IMG/VR virus record: IMGVR_UViG_3300047178_000244 | Location: 1-49,779 of that record | Reading direction: 5' to 3' (one strand) | Length of the DNA stretch: 49,779 nt | From: a virus | Shown here: positions 8,460 to 36,128 of the stretch, one piece after another | Position numbering within the stretch: position 1 is the first letter of the stretch | How the letters are laid out: every line of letters starts with the position of its first letter | The notes under the pieces: model-generated | What the model was told of the DNA's origin: nothing | The model's input: the letters and a program-made list of their open reading frames with translations, nothing else | Databases searched by the model: none | Translations under genes and position numbers: made by a program

Positions 8460-8474
8460 GTCTCCGATCCAGGC
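8460..8474 (-). promoter_or_regulatory. Late-module motif GCCTGGATCGGAGAC (copy upstream of the endolysin gene)
   Basis: The 15-mer is identical to 10330..10344. It is intergenic, 5 nt after the upstream stop codon. Confidence 0.4.
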
Positions 8475-8479
8475 GTCGG

Positions 8480-8779
8480 CTAAGAGCCCGTGCGGCCCCG
8501 GTTGTGCGAAGCCTGGAGCTCCAGCTTCGTTTCGATCTTCACGAGCCGCTCGCGGATTTCGCCCCTCATTTCGGAGAACTGCCTCATCAAATCGTCGCCT
8601 TGGCGCGCGATGCGAGCCTCAAGCCGGGTGACGGTGGTCTCCAGCTTTCCGATGCGCGTGGCCTGGTCCTTGAAACGCGTCCAGGCGCTCGAGGCGTGCC
8701 ACACGAGCAACACGCCGTTGACGATGACAGCCAGCACAAGCCCGATGGCCTCGTGCGGAATCTCGGGGATATCGGCCAT
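8480..8779 (-). CDS. Single-pass membrane protein with a coiled-coil tail (holin/antiholin or lysis-timing candidate)
   Basis: The TM segment is AIGLVLAVIVNGVLLVW, followed by a heptad-like region TRIGKLETTVTRLEARIARQGDDLMRQFSEMRGEIRERLVKIETKLE. The gene lies between tailspike and endolysin. Confidence 0.6.
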   Translation of the reverse strand: MADIPEIPHEAIGLVLAVIVNGVLLVWHASSAWTRFKDQATRIGKLETTVTRLEARIARQGDDLMRQFSEMRGEIRERLVKIETKLELQASHNRGRTGS

Positions 8780-8795
8780 TTGTGGTAATCCCCGA

Positions 8796-10310
8796 TTATG
8801 CGGTGGTTTGGTCGTTGATGAGGCCTAATGACGCAACAGCCGTCAGGAAGCTGGCCAGCGTAGCGTTGCCTTCACGACTGCCGGTGACCACCGGGCGCGT
8901 TGCGGGTGCCGCGATGCCGTAGGAACCAAACGTCTGAGCCTGGAGCGTGGAAATCGTGGTCTGCCCGTTGGCGTTGTCGATGTATAGGGGCGTATCGACT
9001 TTCGCGCCGCCCACGTAACGGTCCACGAAGAAATCTCCGCCCGCGTTCATCCCGTTCGCCCATTGCAGGACGCCCGCGCGCTTCAGGGCCTTGTAAGCGC
9101 CGTAGTTGGCCATCGCGTCGAGGTTGACCGCGGCGTCTGCGGCGAGCGCTGGCACGACGTTCAGTCCGCCGAAGGTCATAGCGCCGAAGCCGCTGTCCAT
9201 GATTTTGACGTTCTGAGCGCAGGCTCCCTGGATGTCCGGCACGCCGCTAAGGTTCGGCTTGCTCAGCACGAAGTCGCCCGCGGCTTGGTTCATGACCGCA
9301 AGGTGCTGCGACCACACGAACTGTCCGCCGAAGAAGTTGTTGTCGTGCGCGTCCACGTCGTCCGACTGGAAGATTACGCCGACGGCCTCGATGTCCACGC
9401 CGAAGAAGTTGTTGCCGAAGTTGTAGCTGCCATCGAAGTGGACACCGATGGCAGCGTTCCCGGCGGACCCGAAGAAGTCGCAGGACTGCGCACGCCCAAG
9501 CAGTAATGCCGCACCGGACGCCTGGCCAGAGCAGTTCGCGACGATGTCCACGTAGCCGTCGATTACCTGGCCGAAGCCAACTGCCGCACCCGCCACGGGA
9601 GCCGTGTTGTTTACGTTCATCCTGACGAAGGCCGGGGTGTTGAACGCGTCGGAGTAGTCGGACTTGCCCACCTGGAACACCGTGCCGGTCGTCGCGCCGG
9701 TGATGCCGATGTCGCACATCGTGACGTAGAAGTCCGCGCCGCCCGAGTTGAACAGGCCCCATTGCGGCGAGGCCGTGCACGCGCTGACGTCGACGATGGT
9801 GAGCTGGCGGCCCGAGCCGATCAGGGTGAGACCGCACTTCTCGGCGGCAACGACGTCGGTCGCGAGCGCCGCGCCGGAGACCTTGAAGCGCGCAGCCGGT
9901 AGCCTGCCAGGGGTCTTCTTGGTGATGCAGTCGTTCAGGAAGGCGGTGAAGTTCGCGGTGTCGTCCGTAACGCCGTCGCCGACGCACCCGTAGTCCACAA
10001 TCGGGTCGAACCAGGCCATTTTCCTGAGCGACGGCGTGCCCAGGAACAACTTGCTGAGTGCCGCGAGAAGCTGGGTGTTGTCCGTTTTGCTTAGGACGAT
10101 GCCGCTGGTCTCGATGACATGGGCGATTTCCTCCTGGACTGCATTCCAGGAATCCGGGTCGATTGTCGTCGCCGGGACCACGCCCGGGATGCCGCCGGTA
10201 GCGAAGCCTGGGGTGCCGACTACTGGACCGGCGACCGGCAGGACGGTGGCTTGCGTTCCGTTGGAGATTCTCTGCACGGCTGGGGACCCTCGCGGCGGGC
10301 GGATTACCAC
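8796..10310 (-). CDS. Tailspike/tail fibre with a pectate-lyase-like beta-helix (putative polysaccharide depolymerase)
   Basis: DYGCVGDGVTDDTANFTAFL resembles the Pectate_lyase_3 motif. The N-terminal fibre-anchor motif is IDPDSWNAVQEEIAHVIETSGIVLSKTDNTQLLAAL. Start is GTG. Confidence 0.8.
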   Translation of the reverse strand: MVIRPPRGSPAVQRISNGTQATVLPVAGPVVGTPGFATGGIPGVVPATTIDPDSWNAVQEEIAHVIETSGIVLSKTDNTQLLAALSKLFLGTPSLRKMAWFDPIVDYGCVGDGVTDDTANFTAFLNDCITKKTPGRLPAARFKVSGAALATDVVAAEKCGLTLIGSGRQLTIVDVSACTASPQWGLFNSGGADFYVTMCDIGITGATTGTVFQVGKSDYSDAFNTPAFVRMNVNNTAPVAGAAVGFGQVIDGYVDIVANCSGQASGAALLLGRAQSCDFFGSAGNAAIGVHFDGSYNFGNNFFGVDIEAVGVIFQSDDVDAHDNNFFGGQFVWSQHLAVMNQAAGDFVLSKPNLSGVPDIQGACAQNVKIMDSGFGAMTFGGLNVVPALAADAAVNLDAMANYGAYKALKRAGVLQWANGMNAGGDFFVDRYVGGAKVDTPLYIDNANGQTTISTLQAQTFGSYGIAAPATRPVVTGSREGNATLASFLTAVASLGLINDQTTA

Positions 10311-10329
10311 TCCGAGGCTACCAGCCGAC

Positions 10330-10344
10330 GTCTCCGATCCAGGC
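10330..10344 (-). promoter_or_regulatory. Late-module motif GCCTGGATCGGAGAC (copy upstream of the tailspike gene)
   Basis: It is intergenic, 2 nt after the upstream stop codon. Confidence 0.4.
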
Positions 10345-10346
10345 CG

Positions 10347-10652
10347 TCAGCCCATGTTCCTGGGGTCGGGCACGGACGGGCTCCAGTCCCAAATTTCCTT
10401 GCCGACCGAGCCGGGTGTGAGCGACCAGGTGCAATGGTCACGGTCCTGCCGGAATACGGTTTTCCCGATCCACGTCAGGACCGCGCACGCGTAGAAAGCC
10501 CAACGCTGCCCGGCCTCCCGGCACCTCGCGCAGCGCTGGCTGACGGTCTCGTTGGGGCTGCCGAGCAGGGGGAACGTGTTCAGCGCCTTGTCGGCGATCA
10601 AGGCCATGTTTAGGCCGAATTGCTTGGCGAAGGCGCACGGGGTGCAGGGCAT
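10347..10652 (-). CDS. Hypothetical Cys-rich protein (101 aa)
   Basis: GAGGAGG lies upstream of ATG 10652. Cys pairs are CTPC and CARC. I took the internal start of listed ORF 10347..10883. Confidence 0.55.
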   Translation of the reverse strand: MPCTPCAFAKQFGLNMALIADKALNTFPLLGSPNETVSQRCARCREAGQRWAFYACAVLTWIGKTVFRQDRDHCTWSLTPGSVGKEIWDWSPSVPDPRNMG

Positions 10653-10662
10653 GGTGACCTCC

Positions 10663-11100
10663 TCAGGCGGCGGCCGGTGGCTGGTTTGCCAAGACCTGCG
10701 CTTGCCTAGCGGCGGTGAGCAGACCTGCGGCGACCAGCGCAGCCAGACCGGCGACGGTCTGCGGGTCCGACAGCACGATGTAGGTGGCGCCCATGGCTTT
10801 CGAGAACCAAAGGAAGACCGCGGCATTGGCCAGGGCCGCCTGCGCGATCGCCTGCTGCTCGGCCGGGGTGAACAGCGCAACAAACTGCAGCGGCGTTAGC
10901 TGCACGGGAATCAGCGCTGCAACCGGCTGAGCCGCCGCGAGCCGGGCGATGACGGCGGCCGCCGTGGTGTCGCTCGCGGGCTTGCACCCGGACGCCAAGA
11001 AAGCGACGTATTCCGGATCGGTCAGCGGCACCCAGGCGGACCTGTCGGTCGCATAGACCTGTGCGGGGGTGTCCGCGGCGAGATAGAACCAGCCTGCCAT
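10663..11100 (-). CDS. Hypothetical protein, position consistent with tail-fibre assembly/chaperone
   Basis: 145 aa with protein-like composition. The GAGGATTACAAAA-ATG initiation cassette precedes it. It lies directly downstream of the fibre gene. Confidence 0.55.
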   Translation of the reverse strand: MAGWFYLAADTPAQVYATDRSAWVPLTDPEYVAFLASGCKPASDTTAAAVIARLAAAQPVAALIPVQLTPLQFVALFTPAEQQAIAQAALANAAVFLWFSKAMGATYIVLSDPQTVAGLAALVAAGLLTAARQAQVLANQPPAAA

Positions 11101-11114
11101 TTTTGTAATCCTCG

Positions 11115-11840
11115 TTAGCCCAGGGACCAGCCTTCAAGCGCCACGACGATTGGGGTCGCGTCATCGCCCGGATTCGCGATGTTTATTGCGCCGGTGCCGC
11201 CGATTACGGAGATTCCAACGTGCGTCGGGTTCGCGACGTAGTCCGTGTTCGGGGACGCCGACAGCGCGCCGATCGGCGTGTAAAGCCTGCCGTCGCCTGA
11301 ATACGAGAACGCCGATAGCCCAGCACCCTGCGCAAAGGCGAAGCCGAGCCCGAAAAGAGAGGTGTCCGGCAGCGCGGACAGGCATGTATTGCCGGAGCTT
11401 ACAAAGCTAAACGGGTCACTCCAGTTCGCAAATTCGAGCACGTCGTTCTCGTACCCGCCGTAGAGCCTGCGCCGCACTGAATAGATGCAATTCTTCCCGG
11501 TGGTCGCATCCCAGAGCGCCAGCCCGATCATCGCGTACTGCGGCCAGTACGAGACCGGGCGAATCACGGCCTTGGCGGTCCAGGAGTTCGCCGCGGGGAC
11601 TGGAACGCCAACGAACGATACGCCGATTCCGGACGTCGACCATGGCGACGAGAAATACAGCGGGCTCGTGGGCCCGGCGTCAGTAACGGACACCTGCGCT
11701 GGCGTCGCGGTCTCAACGATGTATCCCGCAAATCCGGCGCGGCTCAGGGGCGTGGGAATGCTGGCCGCCAATGCCGCGAAATTGCCGTTCAGGTCGGCCG
11801 CGTCGAGTGTCTGTCCGTCCGTCCACGTAACGAGTGCCAT
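11115..11840 (-). CDS. Tail fibre / receptor-binding protein (putative)
   Basis: The N-terminus MALVTWTDGQTLDAADLNGNF matches the common tail-fibre N-terminal motif. It follows the baseplate gp48-like gene. Confidence 0.6.
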   Translation of the reverse strand: MALVTWTDGQTLDAADLNGNFAALAASIPTPLSRAGFAGYIVETATPAQVSVTDAGPTSPLYFSSPWSTSGIGVSFVGVPVPAANSWTAKAVIRPVSYWPQYAMIGLALWDATTGKNCIYSVRRRLYGGYENDVLEFANWSDPFSFVSSGNTCLSALPDTSLFGLGFAFAQGAGLSAFSYSGDGRLYTPIGALSASPNTDYVANPTHVGISVIGGTGAINIANPGDDATPIVVALEGWSLG

Positions 11841-11849
11841 GTCGCCTCC

Positions 11850-22586: not shown

Positions 22587-22618
22587 CAGGGCGGCCCCAA
22601 GTATTCAGGGCCGCCCTG
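22587..22618 (-). promoter_or_regulatory. Perfect 11-bp GC hairpin just downstream of the major capsid gene
   Basis: CAGGGCGGCCC-(10 nt)-GGGCCGCCCTG. On the sense (minus) strand it is followed by AUUACGAAAAAACG with no U tract, so it is an attenuator or mRNA-stabilising structure rather than a canonical terminator. Confidence 0.6.
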
Positions 22619-24667: not shown

Positions 24668-25561
24668 TTACTTCAGGGACGCCGCGAGGGCGCGGAATGC
24701 CGCGTCGGGGCTCATCACATCGTCAGCGTATCCGACCGCGACTCCATTCCCGCCGAGGTACGTGAGGGCCTGCGTCTTGCGGACGTCGGAAGCCTTCATG
24801 TTCCTGTTGCGGGCAACGGTCTCGATGAACATGTCGCCAAGATTGTTGACGTCCGCTTGGAACCTCTCGAGCGCGCCTTCGGACAAGGGCTTCATCGGAG
24901 AACCGTCGGCCTTGTGCTCGCCGCACGTGATCAGGGTTACGGAAATCCCGGCCTTTTCGAGCGCCGCAGAGAAATCCGTGTGCATGCAGATGACGCCGAC
25001 GCTGCCGGTGCCGCCCGTTCGGGGAACGGTGATGCGGTCGCAGGCGCTGGCGATTGCGTAAGCCGCCGAATACGCGGACTCGTTCAGCACGGCCCACGTG
25101 GGCTTCATGCCGCGGGCTGCGTAGACCGTGTCGGCGAAGTCGAAGCAGCCGGACACCTCGCCGCCGGGCGAGTCGATGTCGAACAGGACGCCCTTGACCG
25201 CCGGGTCCACCAGGGCGCCCAGGAAGGCGGTGCGCAGCGCGTCGTAGCCGGTGCCCCAGTATGAGTACGGCGACATGTAGCCGCACCGCTGCATCAGGGT
25301 GCCGCGCACCGGGATTACGCCGACGTCGCCCACCACGGTGTAGCCCTTGTAGTCGCCCCAGGCCTTGGCGGACGTATGGTCATCGCCGTCTTCGAGCTCG
25401 GCGCGGCCGCGCAGCGGGACTAGACGGCCGTCCGGCCGACGCATGCTGCCGCCGCCAATCTGGGCCGCCAGCGCAGCCACCAGGACCTCGGCGTGGTCGC
25501 CGCTGACGGCCCACGGCCTATTAAATAAGCGGGCGGCGAGGAAATCGGACCGGGAAGACAC
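24668..25561 (-). CDS. Prohead maturation protease, S49 (SppA/lambda gpC-like)
   Basis: Family signatures: VLFDIDSPGGEVSGCFD, SAYSAAYAIASACDRI and GGTGSVGV. GTG start. Confidence 0.9.
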   Translation of the reverse strand: MSSRSDFLAARLFNRPWAVSGDHAEVLVAALAAQIGGGSMRRPDGRLVPLRGRAELEDGDDHTSAKAWGDYKGYTVVGDVGVIPVRGTLMQRCGYMSPYSYWGTGYDALRTAFLGALVDPAVKGVLFDIDSPGGEVSGCFDFADTVYAARGMKPTWAVLNESAYSAAYAIASACDRITVPRTGGTGSVGVICMHTDFSAALEKAGISVTLITCGEHKADGSPMKPLSEGALERFQADVNNLGDMFIETVARNRNMKASDVRKTQALTYLGGNGVAVGYADDVMSPDAAFRALAASLK

Positions 25562-25607
25562 GGGGCGGCCTCGGACGGGTTGCTACCCGCCCAGGATGCC
25601 CCCCGCG

Positions 25608-25618
25608 GTCTCCGATCC
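25608..25618 (-). promoter_or_regulatory. Late-module motif GGATCGGAGAC (copy between portal and protease genes)
   Basis: It lies in the 100-nt portal-protease spacer. Confidence 0.4.
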
Positions 25619-25661: not shown

Positions 25662-27416
25662 TCAGTCCGGCTTCTCGTCTTCCTGGAGGTCCGTGGCGCC
25701 CTTCTTGGCGTCCGCAGGCGCGGTCCCGGACCAGTCCGGCGGCGTCATGTTGCGCTCCTTGAAGAACGCGAGCTCGACGGCCCTCTGCTCCACGTTCTCC
25801 TGCCAGTCGCTGCCGTTTTCATCGGCGCAGACGTCGCGCAGCGTCCTGATTCCGGCTTCCATGCCCAGGACTTCCGCCTGCCTTTCTTTCACGCCATCGA
25901 TCACCCCCGCACCCGGCCCGCGCCAGCCGCAACGGGAGTAATACTCGCGCGCCTCGACGAAATCCGGGGCACCGGCGGGCAGCGGGACCAGTCCGCGCTC
26001 GTGAACCTCCTGCAGCCAGACGGCGTAGTGCTTGTTCGCGAAGCTCGTGTTGAACTCGGTCACCCTGCGGCGCGCGGTCTTCTCCGTCTGAGCGAAAGCG
26101 GCCCGGACAGAGCTGTAGTTGACCTTCGAGAAATCTTGCGTGAGCCCCTCGAACGGAATGTTGAGTGCAGAGGCCGTGTTCCTGAGCATCTCGGCGGCAA
26201 AAGGCCCAAAACCTGCGTTCGGCCTCTCCGCGGTGACGGTCTCGATGGACTCACCGGCGGCCAACGTAGGGATGGATACCCCGTTCATCTGCGGGCGGCG
26301 CTCCTCATGGAAGGCTGCCCGGTAATCCTGGTAGGCACCCAGGCCGCCGAGATTCAGGCCGTCGCCCGTTGGGCTCAGCTCGTCTTCTGCCAAGGCCGGG
26401 TCGAAAGGGCTCTTGATGAAAAGGCCGAACATGCTGGCAACGGTGGCCGCCTGCAGCTCCACGCCGTAGTATTTCGACAGCATCTTCATGCGACCCATAA
26501 CGGGCGTGAAAACGCCAACTCCCCTGTGCGTGTCAGCCCTGTTGCGGACGGTGTGGTGCAGCACGCGCTGCCAGCCGTCGTCGTCCTCACGCTCCACGCG
26601 CTCCCAGATGTAGGAGTCCGACATGTCGTAGAAGCTGTTGGGCTCGCCCTTCCGCATCCAGTATGCCTGCGGCGCGCCGCGGCGCTCGTCGAGCTCGATG
26701 CCGCCGCGGAGGAACTGGTGGTCCATCTGCTGGAAGGGATTCGACAGCCGGTCCGGATCGATGATCTGCAGCGAGGTGGCAAATTTCGCGCGGCCGCGCC
26801 CGATGTCCTCGGGGAACCACAAGTGAACCCCGAGCGCCTCGCCGTCGACGAGGTAATGCCAAAGCGCCTGCCTAAATTGTTGCGTGGTCGTCAGTGACCG
26901 GTGGACGTCGTTCCAGTGCCCGTTGGACTCCGAGTAGGCACGCCACAGGCTCTCGACCGTTTTCCGGTATTCGTTAGCCCATACTGCGTCGAAGCCTGGG
27001 CCGAACTCGCGCGACAGGCTGATGTAGTCAGGGGTACAGGTCAGCCGGTATGTGCCGCCGAGCAGCGCGTCCAGCATCCTGTCAATCCCGCCGCCCGCCC
27101 AACCGTCGTTGCGCACCAGGTCGCGGCTGCGGGCCACCATGCGGTCGCGGTAGAGGTTCGTTTCGGCGTCCGGACCTTTTACAACCGGCAGCCACTCGGA
27201 CATTTCCTGCGTAGAGACGGCGGCCGCATCATACGGATACGCAAAACCCTGCCAGCCGCCCTGGAGTCCCGCCTTGTGCTTGGGGCGCACGGTGTCCGCG
27301 ATGGGGACGATGCCGCCGTTCCCGATCGTGGGTTCGCGGCGCGGCTGCGCGGGGGTGCTTCCCGGGATGATGAGGCCGCCGATGCGGCTGATAATACCCA
27401 TTTTCGTGAACCTCAA
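25662..27416 (-). CDS. Portal protein, lambda gpB family (start TTG 27416 or ATG 27401)
   Basis: LYRDRMVARSRDLVRNDGWAGGGIDRMLDALLGGTYRL is typical of lambda-type portals. 584 aa. Confidence 0.9.
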   Translation of the reverse strand: MRFTKMGIISRIGGLIIPGSTPAQPRREPTIGNGGIVPIADTVRPKHKAGLQGGWQGFAYPYDAAAVSTQEMSEWLPVVKGPDAETNLYRDRMVARSRDLVRNDGWAGGGIDRMLDALLGGTYRLTCTPDYISLSREFGPGFDAVWANEYRKTVESLWRAYSESNGHWNDVHRSLTTTQQFRQALWHYLVDGEALGVHLWFPEDIGRGRAKFATSLQIIDPDRLSNPFQQMDHQFLRGGIELDERRGAPQAYWMRKGEPNSFYDMSDSYIWERVEREDDDGWQRVLHHTVRNRADTHRGVGVFTPVMGRMKMLSKYYGVELQAATVASMFGLFIKSPFDPALAEDELSPTGDGLNLGGLGAYQDYRAAFHEERRPQMNGVSIPTLAAGESIETVTAERPNAGFGPFAAEMLRNTASALNIPFEGLTQDFSKVNYSSVRAAFAQTEKTARRRVTEFNTSFANKHYAVWLQEVHERGLVPLPAGAPDFVEAREYYSRCGWRGPGAGVIDGVKERQAEVLGMEAGIRTLRDVCADENGSDWQENVEQRAVELAFFKERNMTPPDWSGTAPADAKKGATDLQEDEKPD

Positions 27417-29086
27417 AACATCGGGCGGATGGGGCGGCGTTTACGGACGAGCCCGAGTGCGCCAGCCAAATCGCGAATTCTCTTCCGTAAACCGTCGGCA
27501 TTTGCGCTCGTGTAGGTGACCGACTTCCCACCCGCGCCCTGGCTGTAGGAGATGTTGACCTCCCTCTGGCCGCTCTCCAGGTCCTGGAGGGCCGCCTGGG
27601 AGTCCGCCAGCCATTGCTGGAGGGTCGCCACGGGCACCCCGATGTATTCGGCCGGGACCGTGGGCCTGTTCCAGGAGCCGGTGCAGCCGCCGATGAAGTC
27701 CCATCCCTGGGGCTGGAGGGTCGCCGGTGCCGCGAGGACCGCGAGGCCCGCCCCGATGGCGCCTGCGCCGACCGAAAGGTTCGCGGGGTTGCCATAGAAA
27801 TCCGTTATAGTAATGGGGGTAACGCCAGCCGTAACAGCGACCGTTATCCCTGTTATCGTAACGCTCCCGGAGACCTCGCCCTGCGCCTGGGGGCTGTAGA
27901 CGAAGCCCAGCATCGGGCCGCTCGCGTATGCAAGAGGCACCTGTGCACCATTGGAGAGCACGAGAGACACGGCAGCGCCGGGAGCCACCACGACGGGCTT
28001 GCTGAAGCTGACCCGGACCTCCGTAGATCCGCCGCCCAGGCTGACGGTAGTGGTGGTCGCGACCGCGCCGGTGACCACGGCGGCCGTGCCGTCGAGCAGG
28101 ACGTCTGGAAGCAGCGCGGAGACGTAGGCCGCACCCCAGAGAGGGTTCCCAGACATGTCCGTGATGCTCGCACCGGCGGCCAGGACGAGCGCGCCGACCT
28201 GCAGCTGGCCCGGCGCCTGACCGACGGGAACGGCGACGCGGAAAGCGAGCCGGGTCGAGGTGGTCTGGGTCAGATCGGCGGCCGCCACGCCAGCCGATGT
28301 CGCCAGGGTGAGGATGCCGACGGCGACGCACGGCTTGCTGAGGCCGAGGAAGATTTCGATTTCCTGGGCAGCACCGTAGAGCCCGGCCTGCGCCGAGATG
28401 GTGCCGACCTTGGGCATGACCCCGTCGATGATTACGCCAGCCAAGGAAACAGCCGCGCCTCCAAGGACAAGCGGGTTCCCGGCTGCGTCGGTGAGGCCCG
28501 CGCCGGGGTTCAGGAAAGAGACGGCCAGCGGGTTCGCCGACATGCCCCATTGAACCGTCAGATCGAAGCGCAGGTTCTGGCTGGTGCTGCCGGTGGGATT
28601 GTAGACGGCCGCGCCCACGCCCGTGAACAAGACCGGAGGCTGCGCGGCGTCCACGAGGCGGACCGGGGTGGACGTCGCGACGTAGATCGGGATTACGGAC
28701 TCGCCCGAGTAGGTGCCCGCGGCTGCGCTGACGCCGGTGATCGTGGGCAGCGCGGCGGCCGCATAGACCCCGTTCAGCACGCCAGCGGTGACGCCTCCGG
28801 AGAGCGGAAGCCCGGTCGCCACGGAGACGATTGAGCCGCCGTTGAGGGCGAGGTCCGTTACGGCCAGCTGCACGGCGAGCCCGGCTGGAACGAGGAACGC
28901 GAAGACGGCGACCGCGCCCTGCTGCGACGAGAAGGATGCCGCGCCAGCGTTCAGGTCTAGCGATGGCGACGGTCCCAGCAAGGAAACCGGTGCCGAGAAG
29001 GTTACGGAAATCGGGATGACCGAGCCTGCGCGGTAGTTTCCAGCCGGTGCGGTGACGCTGAGCACGGTGAGCGGGCTGCCGGACAC
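27413..29086 (-). CDS. gpW-like head-tail joining domain fused to four tandem Ig-like repeats (557 aa)
   Basis: The C-terminal 70 aa, VATLQQWLADSQAALQDLESGQREVNISYSQGAGGKSVTYTSANADGLRKRIRDLAGALGLVRKRRPIRPMF, align by eye with lambda gpW (..AALHDLMTGKR..VEFTATSVSDLKKYIAELE..RRRGPAGF). Upstream are four ~111-aa repeats, each starting (V/I)xxxxAxAGxYxxGxxIxI and ending xLxxGxxIxDxxGNPL. GTG 29086 has AGGAG 7 nt upstream. Confidence 0.75.
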   Translation of the reverse strand: MSGSPLTVLSVTAPAGNYRAGSVIPISVTFSAPVSLLGPSPSLDLNAGAASFSSQQGAVAVFAFLVPAGLAVQLAVTDLALNGGSIVSVATGLPLSGGVTAGVLNGVYAAAALPTITGVSAAAGTYSGESVIPIYVATSTPVRLVDAAQPPVLFTGVGAAVYNPTGSTSQNLRFDLTVQWGMSANPLAVSFLNPGAGLTDAAGNPLVLGGAAVSLAGVIIDGVMPKVGTISAQAGLYGAAQEIEIFLGLSKPCVAVGILTLATSAGVAAADLTQTTSTRLAFRVAVPVGQAPGQLQVGALVLAAGASITDMSGNPLWGAAYVSALLPDVLLDGTAAVVTGAVATTTTVSLGGGSTEVRVSFSKPVVVAPGAAVSLVLSNGAQVPLAYASGPMLGFVYSPQAQGEVSGSVTITGITVAVTAGVTPITITDFYGNPANLSVGAGAIGAGLAVLAAPATLQPQGWDFIGGCTGSWNRPTVPAEYIGVPVATLQQWLADSQAALQDLESGQREVNISYSQGAGGKSVTYTSANADGLRKRIRDLAGALGLVRKRRPIRPMF

Positions 29087-29135
29087 GTGAGAGCTCCTGC
29101 CGCAGGAAAGGGCGTTCCCAGCGTAGCGGCAGGCG

Positions 29136-29145
29136 GCTCCGATCC
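29136..29145 (-). promoter_or_regulatory. Late-module motif variant GGATCGGAGC (copy upstream of the Ig-gpW gene)
   Basis: It is intergenic, 6 nt after the HTH gene stop. Confidence 0.35.
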
Positions 29146-29151: not shown

Positions 29152-29370
29152 CTACCCGGCGCGGACGCGGCGACGCCAGCCGACCGGCGGCGGCAGATCG
29201 CCGTGGGCTGCTACCAGGCTGCGCAGCCATTCTGCTACAGCAGGCGGCACGGTGCGGTCTGCGGAAACCCATCGGCGCACGAGACGATCATCAGCATCGA
29301 GCGAGGCGGCGAGCCAGCGCATCGACCAGCCGAGCGCATCGAGGCATTTCACGAGTTCTTCGGGGGGCAT
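29152..29370 (-). CDS. Small HTH regulator divergent from the antisense island
   Basis: 72 aa: MPPEELVKCLDALGWSMRWLAASLDADDRLVRRWVSADRTVPPAVAEWLRSL (HTH-like). AAGGAG RBS precedes ATG 29370. Confidence 0.65.
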   Translation of the reverse strand: MPPEELVKCLDALGWSMRWLAASLDADDRLVRRWVSADRTVPPAVAEWLRSLVAAHGDLPPPVGWRRRVRAG

Positions 29371-29546
29371 TTTAGGGTCTCCTTTTCCTGTTCCGATGGT
29401 CCCTACCCGCGAGGCACGAGTCAAGACTCTTGAATGTCTGACAACAGGTTTGACAAATCGAACGCTGCGTCAAACGCAGGTAAGCCATGCGCGAAACGGA
29501 TAAACGACTTGCTCGCATTCTGCCGCACCAAGGGGGACTATAAATG

Positions 29547-29586: not shown

Positions 29587-30249
29587 ATGAGCCACGCTTA
29601 CGAAATCGGCGCGAGTGAGGAGATGGACCGGCTGAAGCTGGTTTTCGAAGATGCAGCGTTCGGCGTGCGGGCGATGCAGGGTGTAAACCGCGTGGGCGGT
29701 CGCCGCGACGCTTCCGGCAAGACGACACACTACGTTTTCCCGCCGGAAGTCAGGGGCGACGTCGAGGCGGCGATCGCGAAGGCCGTGGCTCGCGAGGAAG
29801 CGCAGCGCGTCTGGGAAGCTGCCGCTCCGCAGCGCGAGGCCGAGGCCAAGGCGGCGCAGAAGCGAGCGAAAGCCGAGGCGAAGGCAGCCGCTGACGCCGC
29901 GGTAACCGCAGAAATCGGGAAATGGACTCAAGACGGCGCGGTTTGCTTCCTGCGGATTGAATACGCGAAGGGCGCTCCGCTGAAGCTTCGGGCGGCTGGA
30001 GCAAGCTGGGACTCTATCGGCAGCGTCTGGGTTTTCCCGTTCTCCGCCCGCCCGGCCGTCGAAAAGCTGCTGCCGAAGCTGAAGGATCTGGCCATGAAGC
30101 AACGCAAGCGCGATGCACAGAGCGCCCGTGGTCTGCTGGATCTTAGCGACGACATGCTTGAGCAAATGGCCAACGATGGCGTATTGGGCAACGACATAAA
30201 CGCGAGCGGCGCCGATCTCCGCCGCGAGATTCGAGCTTGCCGCATCTGA
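29587..30249 (+). CDS. Island gene A: hypothetical protein with Ala/Lys/Glu-rich linker and a DUF5710-like C-terminal motif
   Basis: 220 aa. VCFLRIEYAKGAPLKLRAAGASWDSIGSVWVFPFSA resembles the Y-x-x-K-x-x-x-K-x-x-GA-x-WD-x-x-x-K-x-W-x-VP domain. GGAGAG RBS precedes it. Confidence 0.6.
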   Translation: MSHAYEIGASEEMDRLKLVFEDAAFGVRAMQGVNRVGGRRDASGKTTHYVFPPEVRGDVEAAIAKAVAREEAQRVWEAAAPQREAEAKAAQKRAKAEAKAAADAAVTAEIGKWTQDGAVCFLRIEYAKGAPLKLRAAGASWDSIGSVWVFPFSARPAVEKLLPKLKDLAMKQRKRDAQSARGLLDLSDDMLEQMANDGVLGNDINASGADLRREIRACRI

Positions 30250-30269
30250 GCGGAGCAATCGAAGCAATG

Positions 30270-30300
30270 GGGCCGCTTCCGAGAACGGGGCGGCCCTTTT
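30270..30300 (+). terminator. Rho-independent terminator after island gene A
   Basis: GGGCCGC-13 nt-GCGGCCC followed by TTTTG. Confidence 0.7.
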
Positions 30301-30414
30301 GCTGTCCGGAATTTGCGTGGACAATTCGTATACTGCAACTAGTGCATACCTGGATATTGCGGCAAGCATGAACGTGAACTTTGCCTCCTGCCGCATTTTG
30401 AGGGACCATCGGAT

Positions 30415-30450
30415 CAGAGGCGGACACGAACCCCACCGCCCACGGAGAGA
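30415..30450 (+). repeat. Conserved 5' leader element copy 2
   Basis: Same as 29547..29581 with one extra C. It ends 5 nt before ATG 30456. A shared TGCCGCA box lies upstream (29521 and 30389). Confidence 0.85.
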
Positions 30451-30455
30451 ACGTC

Positions 30456-30893
30456 ATGACCGACATCATCGCCGACGGACCCGTAGCCGAAGTCGTGCAG
30501 CAGCTGGTTGTGGACATCGACCACGCCCACGACTGGACCCTCGACATCAACTTGGCTGTCGCCAGGTCGGCACGTGCGCTCCAGACCATGACGAAAGCCG
30601 ATTGCGGGGCATATGCCCGCTACTACGCAGTGACAATCCTGGACGCCCTGGAAGCCTGCGATGCGCGCATAGGCAACCCGCAGCCCGAAGGCACGCTGGA
30701 GTGGATACTCAACGGCATGCCACCTGCCGATGGCTTCTGCGAGGCAGATCTTGTAGCTCGCGGCGCGCTGTCCTCGCTCGTGGGCGCGCTGGAAAACCTC
30801 AGGTCCGAAGACGGCGGGCGGAACGATTTCTACGCCCTGGAGAGCCGTTGCGCCGATGCGGCGCTCGTGAGCTGCCTGCCCACCGCGGCATAG
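30456..30893 (+). CDS. Island gene B: hypothetical acidic protein (145 aa)
   Basis: The ORF is preceded by the conserved leader and a GGAGAGA RBS. I recognise no motif. Confidence 0.6.
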   Translation: MTDIIADGPVAEVVQQLVVDIDHAHDWTLDINLAVARSARALQTMTKADCGAYARYYAVTILDALEACDARIGNPQPEGTLEWILNGMPPADGFCEADLVARGALSSLVGALENLRSEDGGRNDFYALESRCADAALVSCLPTAA

Positions 30894-30964
30894 CATCGGC
30901 GACCAAGGACAGCCCGCCGAGGCCCGCCACCGGACACGGGGCGCGCCTTTTTCATGCCATAAAG

Positions 30965-30981
30965 GGTGCACACATGCATCG
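30965..30981. promoter_or_regulatory. 17-nt element GGTGCACACATGCATCG upstream of island gene C
   Basis: Identical to 44935..44951. It contains TGCA-CACA-TGCA. Confidence 0.45.
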
Positions 30982-31032
30982 CCAGCGCTATCATTGGCGC
31001 AAGGGTGCAAGCCCACGGACCAGGAGGACTAC

Positions 31033-31620
31033 ATGACCAGCCTTCCCGACTACGAGATGGGGTTCATCAACGGCGACAGAGGATGCCCGCCTGTTCCCCA
31101 GTTCTCCCCCGAGTTCAGGCGCGGGCATGATCACGGTGTCGCCCATAGAAAGTATCGCCAGGATAAGGAAGCGGAAAACATTTCGGCGGCGGCTGCCCGC
31201 AAGGCCGCAGGCGACATTTTCAGCAACGGAGTTCGCCTGTCCGATGGCCTGATTTATACGGCAGAATGGGACCGCGACGGCTGCGACAGGCAATTCCTAG
31301 CCGGATACCACACCTTCGATATTTACCGGCAGGATCGACAGAACGAGCGCGACTATTGCGGCACGATGCATGTAGTCGCCAGGGACGACCTCGGCCTTAT
31401 AGCCTTCTACCCGGTCGAACGCTTCTGCCACGCAGAGGATTACGTCGCTCCCGAACCCGAACCCAAGCCGAAGCGGCCATCTGGTTCCAATGCCGACGAT
31501 TGGGTGCTTTTCCTCGACGAGAACCTTCGCATCGAGAACGGCCGCATCAGCGGTATCGGTTACCTAGCTGTGCAGATCGCCGAGGCGCTGGATTGCTTAA
31601 AGACGATAGGGGGCGCGTGA
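31033..31620 (+). CDS. Island gene C: hypothetical protein (195 aa)
   Basis: AGGAGG lies 6 nt upstream of ATG 31033. GC is lower than the surroundings. Composition is rich in D/R/Y/F. I recognise no motif. Confidence 0.6.
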   Translation: MTSLPDYEMGFINGDRGCPPVPQFSPEFRRGHDHGVAHRKYRQDKEAENISAAAARKAAGDIFSNGVRLSDGLIYTAEWDRDGCDRQFLAGYHTFDIYRQDRQNERDYCGTMHVVARDDLGLIAFYPVERFCHAEDYVAPEPEPKPKRPSGSNADDWVLFLDENLRIENGRISGIGYLAVQIAEALDCLKTIGGA

Positions 31621-32477
31621 TGACCCCGTCCATCATCGCCATCCACGGCCGCGCCGGGGCAGGCAAGGGCGTCATCTCAGGTCACCTCGTCGAGCGGCAC
31701 GGCTACACGGCCGTGAAGGTCGCCGCCCCGATAAAAGCCATGATGCGGGCAGCTCTCATGTATGGCGCCGGGCTCTACGGCGATGACCCGGACCTGGACC
31801 GCTGCATCGAGGGCGACCTCAAGGAGGTTCCCGTCCCGCGACTAGGCGGACACACCCCGCGCTACGCTATGCAGATTCTCGGCACCGAGTTCCAGGACGC
31901 GGTCTGCCGCGGAATATTTGCGCGCATCGCGGCGGAGGCGACCCGCAAGGTTGTCGCCGCTGGCGGCCGAGCCGTCGTGGACGACCTGAGGTTCCCGGTG
32001 GAGGTCCGCCACCTGAGGGAGCAGGGCGCCGCGTTCTGGCGCGTTGACCGCTCCGACGTCCAGGAGCTCGCCGCAGGTCGCTGCCGCCGCTCCACCCCTT
32101 GGGACCCGTCCGAGCCGCCGCGCGTGCCCGATCAGGTTGTGGTAGACCACATGGTCTGGGCGCTTCTCATGAGCTGCGGTCTGGACGACAAGGAAGCCCT
32201 GCAGAGGGCTGTGGGATACCGCGGCGACGAGCCCTGGGCATACATCGGCAAGTCGGCGAACGTGTGCCGCTACGCCTTGTCGGCAATCTGGCTCGAACGG
32301 CTGCGGCGACCGGCTCCGGCCGTCACGCACGCCTCGGAGCGCGGGCTGCCCGCTAAGACGTTCGACGTCGTTCTCGTGAACAAGGGGACCACCCACGACC
32401 TGCGCCGTGAGGTTGAGTGCGCCCTTCAGAGGTCGCCGCAGCCTTACTACGGCATCGCGGACAGGAGGGCGGCATGA
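31620..32477 (+). CDS. Island gene D: P-loop dNMP-kinase-like protein with a ~90-aa insertion
   Basis: The Walker A is IHGRAGAGKGV. APIKAMM, RYAMQILGTEF and VVDDLRFPVEVRHLREQGAAFWRVDR ... THASERGL ... FDVVLVNKGT match the phage deoxynucleoside-monophosphate kinase pattern. The start overlaps gene C's stop (TGATG). Confidence 0.65.
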   Translation: MTPSIIAIHGRAGAGKGVISGHLVERHGYTAVKVAAPIKAMMRAALMYGAGLYGDDPDLDRCIEGDLKEVPVPRLGGHTPRYAMQILGTEFQDAVCRGIFARIAAEATRKVVAAGGRAVVDDLRFPVEVRHLREQGAAFWRVDRSDVQELAAGRCRRSTPWDPSEPPRVPDQVVVDHMVWALLMSCGLDDKEALQRAVGYRGDEPWAYIGKSANVCRYALSAIWLERLRRPAPAVTHASERGLPAKTFDVVLVNKGTTHDLRREVECALQRSPQPYYGIADRRAA

Positions 32478-32671
32478 CTTGCTACGCCCCCGTCGCCCGC
32501 CGCCCGCACTCCGACGCGGCCGACGAGAACCTGGACCACTGGCCTTATCCGGCGTCCCTGGACATCTACGAGGCCGACCGACGCCCGGTGGACACTGGCC
32601 TCCTGGACGGTCACGGAACGCCCATATACCGGCTGCCCGAGCAGCGCCGCATCGGGTTCCGCCCCCTATAA
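32474..32671 (+). CDS. Island gene E: hypothetical 65-aa protein
   Basis: AGGAGGG RBS. ATGA overlap with gene D. Confidence 0.5.
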   Translation: MTCYAPVARRPHSDAADENLDHWPYPASLDIYEADRRPVDTGLLDGHGTPIYRLPEQRRIGFRPL

Positions 32672-32683: not shown

Positions 32684-33007
32684 ATGGGACAGCTGGTGAC
32701 CGTGGGGGCGCCCACCTTGGAGGACGATGGTCACGCCTTCCACGGCATGCGGGGCATCGTCGCGGGCATCGGCGACCGTCTGGTGGGCCTCGTCCACGTT
32801 CGGACCGGGACCCTGTCGTTGCTGCTGCCCGTCAAGCAAATAGTCGCATCGGTTGGGTGCCGACACAGGGCCGGTCGGGTGGACACGCGGAATTATTCTG
32901 CCGACGAAGTCATCCGCAGGGTGGAAGCCGATATCGTCACGGGAAGCGCATCCAGGAGATCGTCCGACAGGATGGTGCAGGCCATGCTCAGGGCCCGCGA
33001 AGCCTGA
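32684..33007 (+). CDS. Island gene F: hypothetical 107-aa protein
   Basis: AAGGA lies upstream of ATG 32684. It is the last gene before the shared terminator. Confidence 0.5.
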   Translation: MGQLVTVGAPTLEDDGHAFHGMRGIVAGIGDRLVGLVHVRTGTLSLLLPVKQIVASVGCRHRAGRVDTRNYSADEVIRRVEADIVTGSASRRSSDRMVQAMLRAREA

Positions 33008-33034
33008 AACCACCGCGTGCCACCAACCACCGAC

Positions 33035-33064
33035 GCCCGCTTCCACCTGGAGGCGGGCCTTTTT
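33035..33064 (+). terminator. Rho-independent terminator closing the island (abuts the terL stop codon)
   Basis: GCCCGC-12 nt-GCGGGC followed by CTTTTT. On the minus strand no U tract follows the hairpin. Confidence 0.7.
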
Positions 33065-35133
33065 CATGCCATCCGCCGCACCAGGGCCCGCAACCGCTCC
33101 TGCCGGGTCATCTGCTTCGACGCGGGCGCCGCAGCCGGTGGCTTGGACTGCGCGGGAGTGGCGGCGGCCGGTGCCGGGACATGGGCGGCCTGGGGCTCGG
33201 GGGCGTCCGGGAGCGGCGCGACGTCGTCGGGCGGCTCGGGTGCGGGCCGTGCCGGTTCGCCGGGCGCCGGGCAGACGTGGGCGGCGAGCTGGTTGAGCTT
33301 CAGGCCGTAGAAGGCGAGCCCGCACAGCGCGGCGTAGGCGTAAACCCGGATGTCGAGGGCTTCGTTGGCACGCCCGGAACGCTGTTCCCACACCCGCACC
33401 TTCACGCCGCGGACCGTCTTCTCGACCAGGGACTCGGCGAGGAGCTGGGAGAAATAGCCGAGGTCGCGTTCCGCCGGGAAGTGCATGTAGCCCGGTGCCG
33501 GGCCGCCGTCCTCCGGCCGTTCCTGGGCGAGCCGGGACCGGATGATGTCCTTGGCGGCGTTCACGCCGATGGTGATCGGGCGGTAGCTCGCCTTCGCCCG
33601 CGACGTCGGCCTCTTCGTGGGCCACACGGGGCTGCGCGCGCCGCCGATGGCCGGATCGCCCCTGATGGCCCACCACTTCCGCGCGAGGTTGGCCCGGGAG
33701 AAGTTGTAGATCGCCTGGGTGCGGCGGCCGCCGGAGTCGAGGCACGCGGCCACAACCTTGAACTCGACGCCGTCCGCCCGCTTCCACTTCCTCTTCAGGA
33801 ACTCGGCCAGCTTCTCCATGGTCTCCGGATCGTCCGGGTCGCCGTCGATGACCTCGTGCGCGATGCTCCACGACTCTTCGTTCGCCCCCCAGCCGACGAC
33901 CTCGACCTCAAGCCGAGCCTGATGGGTGTCCACGCCCGCCGTCAGGATCGCGACGCCGTCGGGCACCTCCGCGTTCCAGACCTCCGTGCGCGCAGCCAGC
34001 TTGTTTTCCGACAGGTCCTGCTCGCCGCGGTCCTCGAAGGTCTCGCCCAAGACGAGGTTCACGAACGTCTGCAAGGCCAGCGGATCGCTCTTGGCTTCCA
34101 GGAACTCGGCGACGAGCTTCGGCCAAGCGGCGTTGACCATAAGGCTCATGCCCGACCACAGGTGAAACCCCGCCAGCCCCGGCGCCTTGGCCTTCTTCGT
34201 AGGCCGCCAGACGCCGCGGGCATCCATCCACGGCAGATCCACCCACTCGATGCGGCAGCCCTTGCCCTCGCAAACGTAATGGGCGGTCTCGGGCAAGTGC
34301 GTGCCGTCCTCGGCCTTCTCCCACTTGATGCCGTGCGCGACGTCGGCCCCGCCCCACTTTAGGTATTGCTCGGTCTTGCAGTGCGGGCACGGGACGAAGA
34401 ACCGCCGCTGGTCGGTGTCCTTCCAGGCCTTGTCGATGCGGGAGATGGCCGATTTCGTAGGGGTGGACCCCAGCACCATGCGCCGGTTCCAGAAGGTCTC
34501 GCCACGCTTCCACGCCAGCCCGACTTGATCGCCGTCCGCCCCGGCGCCGCCAACGTGATAGCCGTCCACTTCGTCGAGCAGCATGATCCGGCAGGTTATG
34601 CCGCGGAAGCCGTCCGGGGAGTTTGACCCGATGAGCCGCAGCGAGCTGCCGTTCAGGAAGCTCTTTTTCGTAATCGTCTGCGCGGTGTCGCGGGCCCTGG
34701 CCGGGGGGCACAGTTCGGCGAGGACCGGCGTATCCCGCAGCATCGGGGCGATTTCCGACTTGCTGTAGTCCTCGGCGTCCTCGCCGCGCGGCCGGACCAC
34801 GAGGATGGGCGCCGGGTCCTGATGGATGTAGTAGCCGATGGCGTGGTCCAGCACCCGGGTGAAGCCGACGCGGGCGCTCTTCTTGACGATGATCCTGTCC
34901 AGGGTCGGGTCGGTGATCGCGTCCATCAGGCCGACCTGGTAGCCGTAAGCCGTGAAGGCGCCCGTCTGGGAGTTGGTCTCACGGCTGAGGACCGCATGCT
35001 CCTTGGCCCACTCGCTCAGGGTCAGCTTGGGAGGCGGCCGTAGGTTCAGCACCCGTGCGTTAGCCAGGGCAAAGCGCAGCGCCTCCAGGCCATCGGCATA
35101 GCGTTCGGCGGGGATGTCAGGCCGCTGGCGCAT
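33064..35133 (-). CDS. terL: Terminase large subunit, lambda gpA family
   Basis: 689 aa. The Walker-A-like segment is IIVKKSARVGFTRVLDHAIGYY. The C-terminal nuclease region is typical of Terminase_GpA. It overlaps the small-subunit gene. Confidence 0.95.
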   Translation of the reverse strand: MRQRPDIPAERYADGLEALRFALANARVLNLRPPPKLTLSEWAKEHAVLSRETNSQTGAFTAYGYQVGLMDAITDPTLDRIIVKKSARVGFTRVLDHAIGYYIHQDPAPILVVRPRGEDAEDYSKSEIAPMLRDTPVLAELCPPARARDTAQTITKKSFLNGSSLRLIGSNSPDGFRGITCRIMLLDEVDGYHVGGAGADGDQVGLAWKRGETFWNRRMVLGSTPTKSAISRIDKAWKDTDQRRFFVPCPHCKTEQYLKWGGADVAHGIKWEKAEDGTHLPETAHYVCEGKGCRIEWVDLPWMDARGVWRPTKKAKAPGLAGFHLWSGMSLMVNAAWPKLVAEFLEAKSDPLALQTFVNLVLGETFEDRGEQDLSENKLAARTEVWNAEVPDGVAILTAGVDTHQARLEVEVVGWGANEESWSIAHEVIDGDPDDPETMEKLAEFLKRKWKRADGVEFKVVAACLDSGGRRTQAIYNFSRANLARKWWAIRGDPAIGGARSPVWPTKRPTSRAKASYRPITIGVNAAKDIIRSRLAQERPEDGGPAPGYMHFPAERDLGYFSQLLAESLVEKTVRGVKVRVWEQRSGRANEALDIRVYAYAALCGLAFYGLKLNQLAAHVCPAPGEPARPAPEPPDDVAPLPDAPEPQAAHVPAPAAATPAQSKPPAAAPASKQMTRQERLRALVRRMA

Positions 35134-35764
35134 CGGGGTCGCGGTCGCTGACGAGGGCCCTGAGGATCTTGGTGATGGCGGTCTCGAGGTAGTCCCGGAC
35201 CTCCGCAGGCGTGCGCAGCCGGGCTATCGGTTCCGCATGCTCCGCGGCGAGGGAGAGGAAGGCCGTCCGGACGGTGGCGAACTCCCGGCCGACGGAGGCT
35301 GCGACCTCGGACACGACCACCACGGCATGGCTCTCGATGTCGTAGGCCAGCCGCTCGCGAAGCGCCTTGAAGGACTCCTTGATCCTTTTGGCCTCGTCGA
35401 GCGTCCACTCCGTGCCGGTGGTGCGGAGGATTTCGGCGGCCAGGGCGTCGGCGTCGGCCGAGTTTACAGCGTCGTCGTCATCGTCCTCGTCGTAAACCTC
35501 AGGCGCCCGGTTTACGGGGCGGTTTACAGGCTCCGTGTCAGCGGATTTCCTGGGCTCCGATCCGCCCACGCGGTAGCGATCCAGCCGCTCCTTGGTCGCC
35601 GCGACGTCCACGAGACGGTCCCGGAAGACGACCTTGCCCTCGGCCTTCCACTTGGTGACGGCCATGCGGGAGACGCCCATCGCGCGGGCGAACTCGGCCT
35701 GGGTTACGAGATTTCCGATGGTCGCCCCGAGCTCGCCGCCAGCCAAATCTGTTGATTTCGGCAC
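35117..35764 (-). CDS. terS: Terminase small subunit (Nu1-like, N-terminal HTH)
   Basis: VTQAEFARAMGVSRMAVTKWKAEGKV is the HTH. It lies immediately upstream of terL and overlaps it. Confidence 0.8.
   Translation of the reverse strand: MPKSTDLAGGELGATIGNLVTQAEFARAMGVSRMAVTKWKAEGKVVFRDRLVDVAATKERLDRYRVGGSEPRKSADTEPVNRPVNRAPEVYDEDDDDDAVNSADADALAAEILRTTGTEWTLDEAKRIKESFKALRERLAYDIESHAVVVVSEVAASVGREFATVRTAFLSLAAEHAEPIARLRTPAEVRDYLETAITKILRALVSDRDPDAPAA
35554..35563 (-). promoter_or_regulatory. Late-module motif variant GGATCGGAGC (inside terS coding sequence)
   Basis: Same orientation as the other copies. It encodes GGSEP in terS. Confidence 0.25.
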
Positions 35765-35927
35765 CGACCGGACTCCGCGACTGTAAACCGAATTCCGCGA
35801 CCGTCAGCTAGACAACGTACGACCCGCGAATGACCCCCGGGGCTCGGTATGCGCCAGGAGGGACCCATCGGTCACTTGCATGCATTTTTCGCATGGCTTC
35901 CGGGAAATGGGAGAGCCCCGCGCCTAC

Positions 35928-36128
35928 TCATTCATCCTGCACCGGCCCGTCTCCGATCCGCGCAGGTTTCTGGGGCAGCATGGCGCGCCACACCGCGACG
36001 GCCGCCAGCATGTCGTCGAGTGGCACGTCGAAACGGAAACATACCGAGTTCGCCCACCTGAAGAACACAGGAATGGATACGGCATATTTTCCGTTGTCAC
36101 CCACGATGGTGGCGCGAGACAGGCTCAT
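35928..36128 (-). CDS. Hypothetical 66-aa protein (uncertain)
   Basis: AGGAG lies 10 nt upstream of ATG 36128 and composition looks protein-like. However, its 3' end contains one copy of the late-module motif. Confidence 0.4.
   Translation of the reverse strand: MSLSRATIVGDNGKYAVSIPVFFRWANSVCFRFDVPLDDMLAAVAVWRAMLPQKPARIGDGPVQDE
35949..35959 (-). promoter_or_regulatory. Late-module motif GGATCGGAGAC (copy ~185 nt upstream of terS)
   Basis: Same orientation. It lies in the 3' end of the doubtful 66-aa ORF. Confidence 0.35.

Follow-up and report, generated by a model that had tools for sequence, protein, structure and literature searches.

The window analysed here is the whole metagenomic contig of IMG/VR record IMGVR_UViG_3300047178_000244 (49,779 nucleotides (nt), 66% G+C), which comes from a temperate phage. 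It carries genes for an integrase, an XRE repressor, a lambda-type terminase (terS, terL), gpW, the portal, an S49 protease, decoration and capsid proteins, a Mu-like contractile tail with baseplate and a GH108 endolysin. According to a codon-usage gene map the late genes occupy the minus strand between about 37900 and 6547, and this block is split by a plus-strand island (29587-32671) that has terminators of its own. This report deals with a short motif, GGATCGGAG as read along the late strand, that stands at the heads of several late gene blocks. A first-pass annotation had described it as a strand-specific motif of 9-15 nt and had offered three kinds of role for it: a promoter element or activator site, a signal in the late RNA, or a recombination boundary between modules.

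The motif and its partner hexamer

Exact counting on both strands gave six copies of the complement, CTCCGATCC, all on the plus strand (8462, 10332, 25610, 29137, 35555 and 35951), so that GGATCGGAG always lies on the late minus strand; in the opposite orientation CTCCGATCC has no copy in the window. The expected number is 0.84, and none of 100 dinucleotide-preserving shuffles reached six. The six copies on one strand and above chance, as claimed in the first-pass annotation, are thereby borne out, and so is the 15-nt identity (GCCTGGATCGGAGAC) that it had seen between 8460-8474 and 10330-10344. Variants of the 9-mer with one mismatch are not enriched (15 found, 22 expected), which argues for selection on the exact word. 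Non-coding sequence makes up 7.2% of the late region and holds four of the six copies (P about 4 × 10^-4), and a fifth lies within the last codons of a doubtful open reading frame (ORF) of 66 residues. The embedded GATC, also considered as a special feature, is not exceptional: it occurs 173 times in the window, and GATC as well as GANTC are common, with merely a mild under-representation.

The 9-mer is real, but it is just one part of a composite element of about 28 bp. In five of the six copies GGATCGGAG(A/C)C is followed, after 9 nt, by a hexamer YAnnnT; in other words, the hexamer stands exactly 11 nt past the 9-mer. The next two bases are usually GG. Since YAnnnT is found at only 1.3% of positions, its presence behind five of six copies has a chance probability of about 2.5 × 10^-9.

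From the 9-mer to the start codon preceded by a Shine-Dalgarno (SD) sequence there are 48-54 nt at four sites and 186 nt at terS, and the SD is of the GGAG/GAGG type at four sites. An SD of its own precedes the start of each gene by 7-10 nt, whereas the box is about 50 nt upstream, and the motif is therefore not simply an SD sequence, as had been stated before. Three longer ORF starts that were assumed earlier overlap the element. They are probably wrong, having been placed too far upstream, and the SD-bearing starts listed in Table 1 for sites 2, 4 and 5 take their place; the protease start is unchanged.

The element in related phages

A single close relative was found in the databases searched, a metagenome contig from NCBI that was read as two loci, L009 and L033, and that together with the window makes up lineage I. 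Nucleotide identity is 70-79%, and the portal is 93% identical. The exact 9-mer is present there four times, always on the late strand and always with YAnnnT after 11 nt, and it lies before the terS, gpW-fusion, protease and tail-fibre genes. Pooled over the window and this relative, the hexamer is at the fixed distance in 9 of 10 exact copies (P about 1 × 10^-16). Independent gene calls in L009 and L033 place the starts 28-39 nt past the hexamer.

The counterparts of the individual sites (numbered as in Table 1) are instructive. Site 1 corresponds to L009:1567, and nucleotide homology with L009 starts just 55 nt upstream of it. Site 2 lies past the plus-strand island and its terminators, where late transcription must begin anew; its counterpart in L009 (6349) comes immediately after opposite-strand genes. 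Between portal and protease, L009 has an insertion of two opposite-strand genes, and the element (13272) still adjoins the protease gene with an unrelated flank upstream. As these elements of L009 stand right behind genes of the opposite strand, a promoter is needed at those places. Site 4 has its counterpart at L033:12555. Site 5 corresponds to a degenerate copy, GGAAACGGAGCC-N9-CAGGAT, at L033:14554, again before the endolysin gene of the relative.

The remaining copy of the window, inside terS, had been counted as a site in the first-pass annotation. It is not followed by the hexamer at the 11-nt distance and is not among the matrix matches described below. At this place L009 has GGC TCG GAG, which encodes the same residues. 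Because of the synonymous change in the closest relative and the absence of the hexamer, this copy is probably a coding coincidence outside the system.

A second lineage (lineage II) is represented by L010 together with L035 and by L015, with 56-57% identity in the portal. GGATCGGAG does not occur in these loci. Instead, GGAGTC is found, followed after 9 nt by the same type of hexamer, at equivalent junctions: before gpW, the protease, neck and tail genes, baseplate J and the tail fibre. When GGAGTC was counted irrespective of the hexamer, 7 of 11 late-strand copies had YAnnnT at 9 nt, an eighth had GACGAT in the same context, and none of three copies on the other strand did. GAGTC is present in seven of the eight sites. 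The box differs between the two lineages and its register to the hexamer is kept. At the tail fibre the two are nearly identical from GGAG through the hexamer (GGAGACGTCGGCTGGTAGCCT at site 4 against GGAGTCAGCGGCTGGTAGCCT at L035:12844). Conservation at equivalent junctions of related phages, which had been proposed as a check, is thus seen both as the retained composite element of the closest relative and as the GGAGTC variant of lineage II.

A matrix built solely from the 13 sites of the relatives ranked the five sites of the window first, with 16-30 bits and the best score for site 4 (30 bits). The sole other match in this range is at 24745, and the opposite strand does not score above 6.5. 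As a negative control we used 55 loci obtained in a metagenome scan with the portal alignment (41-57% identity, none of lineage I). In the 557 kilobases (kb) of these more distant relatives just two positions reach 13 bits; the near silence of the matrix indicates that the element is specific to the two lineages and that the matrix rarely fires by chance. Cultured phages gave no megablast match with a 12-kb query and at best 43% identity in tblastn with the portal, and the full genome of Acetobacter phage phiAP1 has no such element. A portal search of GTDB genomes and IMG/VR returned just relatives with 25-36% identity, and a scan of IMG/VR with GGATCGGAGAC-N9-YANNNTGG gave 17 single, unrelated matches and no contig with several copies.

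The match at 24745 is the candidate sixth site of Table 1. Its score of 18.6 bits is in the range of the true sites, and the rare A/T-ending codons that form it (AAT GGA GTC ... GGA TAC GCT) are kept in L009 though the intervening residues differ. Judging by its sequence, this site may act within the protease gene as a promoter of the scaffold, decoration and capsid genes; coding constraint is the alternative.

A joint alignment of 18 sites from both lineages gave the consensus G-N3-C-GGAG-W-C-N4-S-C-T-G-N-YAnnCT-GG. Several of its conserved columns had not been used for site selection: the G five bases before GGAG (18/18), the C after GGAGN (17/18), TG before the hexamer (in most of the 18 sites), CT at the end of the hexamer and GG after it. 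Upstream of -33 the columns of these 18 sites show no conservation; conserved positions begin with the box, and a -35 element is therefore absent. A sigma-54 reading (GG-N10-GC) was also considered and rejected, the GC at -12 not being conserved.

Downstream of the hexamer, by 6-9 nt, a sequence G-TAG-S is found in 7-8 of the 18 aligned sites (e.g. at 25581-25586, 35922-35927 and 10302-10306), far above expectation for DNA poor in T-A. It is read here as a probable initiation site (T at -1, A at +1); alternatively, it may be a promoter-proximal pause element that depends on sigma. As an RfaH ops or sigma-dependent pause signal, the downstream G-TAG would be inconsistent across the sites, and the T-A initiation step fits better.

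Table 1 Features of the window discussed in the text.
Feature	Position	Strand	Details
Site 1, putative late promoter	35925..35959	-	Before cos-like leader and terS/terL; box GGATCGGAGAC 35949-35959; hexamer CAGGAT 35934-35939; T-A step (likely +1) 35926-35925
Site 2, putative late promoter	29113..29145	-	Before gpW-fusion gene (GTG 29086) and portal; box GGATCGGAGCC 29135-29145; hexamer TACGCT 29120-29125
Site 3, putative late promoter	25584..25618	-	100-nt portal-protease spacer; box GGATCGGAGAC 25608-25618; hexamer CATCCT 25593-25598; T-A step 25585-25584; protease GTG 25561
Site 4, putative late promoter	10305..10340	-	Before tailspike/tail-fibre gene (GTG 10277); box GGATCGGAGAC 10330-10340; extended -10 TGG-TAGCCT, hexamer 10315-10320
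Site 5, putative late promoter	8438..8470	-	Before GH108 endolysin (probable ATG 8407); box GGATCGGAGAC 8460-8470; hexamer CACGAT 8445-8450
Candidate sixth promoter	24723..24750	-	GGAATGGAGTCGCGGTCGGATACGCTGA; 3' end of protease gene, upstream of scaffold/decoration/capsid genes
terS-internal 9-mer	35555..35563	-	Codons GGA TCG GAG (Gly-Ser-Glu)
XRE/cI-like repressor	712-1335		
Myb1, candidate activator	36831..37418	-	196 residues; Myb/SANT-like helix-turn-helix and C-terminal CxxC...CxxC zinc ribbon; just upstream of late gene block
Myb2, candidate activator	39325..39678	+	117 residues; three-helix helix-turn-helix and zinc-ribbon-like C terminus

Putative late promoters and other explanations

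With a probability of roughly 75%, we consider GGATCGGAG(A/C)C to be a phage-specific box in the upstream part of five or possibly six late promoters that would depend on an activator, lack a -35 element and often have an extended -10. Of the three roles offered initially, the promoter or activator site is thus the one favoured by hexamer spacing, position and conservation. The composite architecture of the element, its position, its conservation and its variation between lineages are demonstrated above; from these we infer promoter activity, start sites, dependence on an activator and the identity of that activator. A promoter of the sigma-70 type would account for the A and T conserved in the hexamer, the TGn found at many sites, the discriminator GG and the distance to the T-A step; it also fits the position of the element and the lack of canonical sigma-70 promoters in the late region, none of which was found between 6500 and 26000.

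According to this model, the promoter would consist of a box at about -32 to -22, a G+C-rich spacer of 9 nt that often ends with TGn, and YAnnnT, usually followed by GG, without a -35 element. Initiation is predicted 7-9 nt past the hexamer, often at a T-A step, which would give leaders of 25-31 nt at four sites that carry the real ribosome-binding site, and a leader of about 160 nt with a cos-like block at terS. The opposite-strand island and spacers would break up the late region and call for re-initiation before terS, the gpW-fusion and portal genes, the protease, the tail fibre and the endolysin. The host sigma-70 holoenzyme alone is expected to use such promoters poorly, and a phage-encoded factor made before the late phase would bind to the box and activate initiation.

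Several points weigh against this reading. Start sites and promoter activity are predictions from sequence. The hexamers are weak, with C as the first base in three of five and with G+C-rich interiors, and the box, if the predicted starts are right, is centred near -27, unlike the binding position of most characterised activators. The ORF scan, made with Pfam, PHROGs or both, covered 57 ORFs of at least 55 residues and with a good coding signal; no sigma factor and no member of the Mor/C, Ogr/Delta, Q, MotA/AsiA or GcrA families was among them. In fold searches, the Myb-like candidates discussed below had no significant structural relatives. The comparison is based on two lineages and about four contigs, and the sites of lineage II were first found with a pattern that contained the hexamer, although the separate count given above was made without it. 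Finally, a repressor instead of an activator could bind to the box.

A repressor would act on an asymmetric operator and silence the late genes in the lysogen, either by a block of elongation, as at stoperators, or by promoter occlusion. The phage does encode an XRE/cI-like repressor (Table 1), the sites are asymmetric, strand-specific, in short intergenic gaps and oriented with transcription, and a box over the -35/spacer region is in a good position for a repressor. In these features the sites are also like the stoperators of L5 gp71 in cluster-A mycobacteriophages, asymmetric sequences of 13-14 bp that lie in short intergenic gaps, are oriented with transcription and number in the twenties or more in both arms, with one of them overlapping the early promoter. 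The window, however, has just five or six sites, on the late strand alone and with a hexamer at fixed spacing, which is not consistent with membership in this class. A roadblock would also leave the exact spacing of 11 nt, the TGn and the T-A step at the expected +1 unexplained, no copy is found at the early and immunity promoters, and promoters are needed anyway behind the opposite-strand inserts. Altogether, a repressor site is unlikely, and occlusion of late promoters by a repressor would be compatible with the promoter reading. Alternatively, the motif might work at the RNA level: a polycistronic late transcript could be processed there, take up an anti-termination factor or be translated more efficiently. 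This would agree with the GGAG in the motif and with its place on the late sense strand, where it follows stop codons closely and precedes the next gene. Yet RNAalifold gave no conserved pair (0) among nine sites of lineage I, the genes have their own SD sequences far downstream of the box, the box lies upstream of the predicted transcription start, and what is conserved along with it is a -10-like hexamer, whose A and T are those by which sigma typically recognises DNA. Moreover, two sites of L009 stand behind opposite-strand genes and no upstream late transcript would carry them. We regard a role in RNA, the second of the initial proposals, as very improbable.

Promoters of extracytoplasmic function (ECF) sigma factors have a GGAAC-like -35, a spacer of 16-17 nt and a -10 of the CGT type. 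The resemblance of GGATC to GGAAC, the core of their -35 element, would point to a -35 element of an alternative ECF-like sigma factor of phage or host, and one site of the relative reads GGAAAC. In lineage II, however, GGATC is missing and a single G is conserved in that segment, the downstream element is like a sigma-70 -10 with TGn and not of the CGT type, and no sigma-70 family domain (r2/r4) was above threshold in the scanned ORFs, so there is little to be said for such a factor. The least probable explanation is that the repeats are recombination sequences at module boundaries, the third role proposed at the outset, or the product of plain chance and coding. The sites do lie at module junctions, the unrelated flank upstream of the protease site in L009 suggests an exchange point, and one of the six copies is truly a coding coincidence. 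But homologous exchange needs more than 9-11 bases, the shuffles and the composite statistics rule out chance, and boundaries would neither hold the spacing to the hexamer nor swap the box in another lineage while keeping the register.

By architecture, the nearest analogue of the putative promoters would be the middle promoters of T4 with their MotA box, but membership in that class fails. T4 middle promoters have a MotA box of 9-10 bp that is centred at -30, lies 12 ± 1 bp from the -10 element and replaces the -35 element, and half of them have TGn (PMC2988021). Common to both are a -10 of the host type (TAnnnT), frequent TGn, the lack of a -35, an asymmetric phage-specific box at a fixed short distance and many copies before gene blocks; YAnnnT at fixed spacing was found in 5/5 window sites taken as functional and 4/4 copies of the relative. 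In the window, the distance to the hexamer is 11 bp for the 9-mer and 9 bp for the 11-mer, and the centre is near -27 instead of -30. The position is thus similar and the sequence is unrelated: the MotA box is (a/t)(a/t)(a/t)TGCTTtA, whereas the box is GGATCGGAGMC in lineage I and GGAGTC in lineage II. Unlike T4, the phage of the window is temperate and G+C-rich, with a lambda-like head and a Mu-like tail, and its putative promoters head late genes for structure and lysis instead of middle genes. No MotA or AsiA family was among the Pfam and PHROG matches of the scanned ORFs.

Mu (with C) and P2, 186 and P4 (with Ogr/Delta) have several late promoters that head blocks of lysis, head and tail genes. 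In these promoters the -10 can be recognised, the -35 is poor or missing, and the activator site is common to the set. The sites of C (about -43.5) and Ogr (about -55) have dyad symmetry and are located further upstream. The window shares with these phages the temperate life style and multiple late promoters, each with a recognisable -10 and heading a block, if the sites are read as promoters. However, a Mu C/Mor or P2 Ogr type was rejected, since the box is asymmetric, would lie at -32 to -22 and is 9-11 bp from the hexamer, and no Mor/C or Ogr/Delta match was found in the scanned ORFs. A single late promoter of the lambdoid Q/QBE type was rejected as well: there are five dispersed copies, and no Q-family match was obtained in the genes upstream of terS. 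GcrA of Caulobacter is a small helix-turn-helix (HTH) protein with a DNA-binding and a sigma-interacting domain, and its promoters depend on N6-adenine methylation of the site. It acts with sigma-70 at a short asymmetric site between -35 and -10, with sites centred at about -20; its promoters have a GANTC methylation site at about -20 or at +2 to +30, and GGAGTCN is a low-ranked GcrA site (PMC4647560). There is a partial likeness, as GGAGTC of lineage II holds GANTC at about -26 to -22. A GcrA-dependent promoter was nevertheless rejected, because the boxes of the window, GGAGAC and GGAGCC, contain no GANTC and Pfam gave just Myb-like and Sigma70_r4_2 matches.

That late promoters of a phage can have a recognition box of their own is known from T4, Mu and P2. 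To our knowledge, the cases characterised so far are nearly all from phages of enterobacteria. In the present data, a promoter grammar appears to be legible in a clade of uncultivated, G+C-rich temperate phages, and it would represent a known kind of phage control element in an unusual layout, with the box in the place of the -35 and spacer, 9-11 bp from an often extended -10. For annotation, the element corrects start codons, marks operon boundaries and predicts where transcription starts. The box may also serve as a handle for finding the activator, and the two lineages offer a natural specificity pair for the co-evolution of activator and site.

Candidate activators and neighbouring genes

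The best candidates for an activator that binds to the box would be two small proteins, Myb1 and Myb2 (Table 1). Myb1, encoded on the late strand, matched Pfam Myb_DNA-bind_6 with E = 2 × 10^-4, just below the curated cut-off, and phrog_13335 with E = 3 × 10^-12. One homologue was found, in L036, with 84% identity over the aligned half of the query, which includes the Myb domain and the zinc ribbon. Myb2 had weak matches to Sigma70_r4_2 (E = 0.011) and Myb, also has a homologue in L036, and gave generic HTH matches alone in the fold search. L036, a contig with a syntenic early region, belongs to the assembly that also yielded the closest relative, and it is probably the other part of that phage. 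In a PDB sequence search the candidates matched the Myb protein CEF1 (E = 0.04). The label 'GcrA-like' used in the first-pass annotation found no support, there being no GcrA match for these proteins by Pfam, PDB sequence or fold search.

It is tempting to speculate that Myb1 or Myb2 is a sigma-70 cofactor that reads the asymmetric box at -32 to -22 of promoters without a -35, as an independently evolved solution similar to MotA or GcrA. Box and protein would have co-evolved (GGATCGGAGMC against GGAGTC), and adenine methylation might tune recognition, at GATC in lineage I with the MT-A70 methylase of the phage and at GANTC in lineage II. This proposal is tentative, and we regard it as doubtful rather than likely. 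If true, the Myb-like cofactors would be a new family among the few factors that replace -35 recognition.

A gene for an MT-A70 family adenine methyltransferase (5026-5697, plus strand) is followed by one for a BglII-like restriction endonuclease (5738-6550, plus strand). The two form a phage-borne restriction-modification pair that adjoins the lysis end of the late block. Enzymes of the BglII family cleave at sites that contain GATC.

A further ORF (29152-29424, minus strand, 90 residues) ends 6 nt before the box of site 2 and has a TTGACT-type sequence upstream. Its product contains an HTH-like segment, LGWSMRWLAASL...RLVRRW, and had no Pfam match; it could be a small regulator.

The leader of terS contains, at about 35765-35900 on the minus strand, a block GGGTCCCTCCTGG...GGGGTCATTCGCGG...CTAGCTGA that is conserved in L009 and L010 and more loosely in Acetobacter phage phiAP1. 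GGTAAC repeats come after it in L010. This block is probably cos together with the terminase-binding region.

Immediately upstream of site 1 lies a gene (36236-36841, minus strand) whose product matches PHROG 1924 ('minor tail protein'). Homologues hold the same position in L011-L013 and L036, which indicates a virion-related gene outside the block served by the five putative promoters.

The plus-strand island consists of five genes between terL and the gpW-fusion gene, among them a deoxynucleoside monophosphate kinase (31620-32477) and a PAS-like protein, and its terminators are at 30269-30297 and 33035-33058. At the same place L009 has a different opposite-strand insert, which includes a glucosaminidase-like gene. 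In the window gpW makes up the C-terminal 65 residues of a protein of 557 residues (27413-29086, minus strand); the fusion protein of L009 has 1192 residues (L009:6410-9988), and other relatives have a free-standing gpW of 85-93 residues.

The major capsid gene is followed by a gap of 72 nt in which, at about 22587-22618 on the minus strand, there is a hairpin with a G+C-rich stem of 14 bp (CAGGGCGGCCCTG AATACTT GGGGCCGCCCTG) and without a U tract. It is likely a stem-loop that stabilises or attenuates the transcript.

It should be mentioned that the early region encodes an FtsH-like protein of 678 residues with AAA and Peptidase_M41 domains (42340-44376, plus strand), which is unusual for a temperate phage and was not selected by the codon-usage gene caller. 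In the more distant relatives L011 (377-1306) and L012 (34-825) a NusG-domain protein of 263-309 residues is encoded upstream of the terminase genes, and the late genes are tightly packed without internal promoters. This suggests that these phages use processive anti-termination as an alternative for the expression of the late operon.

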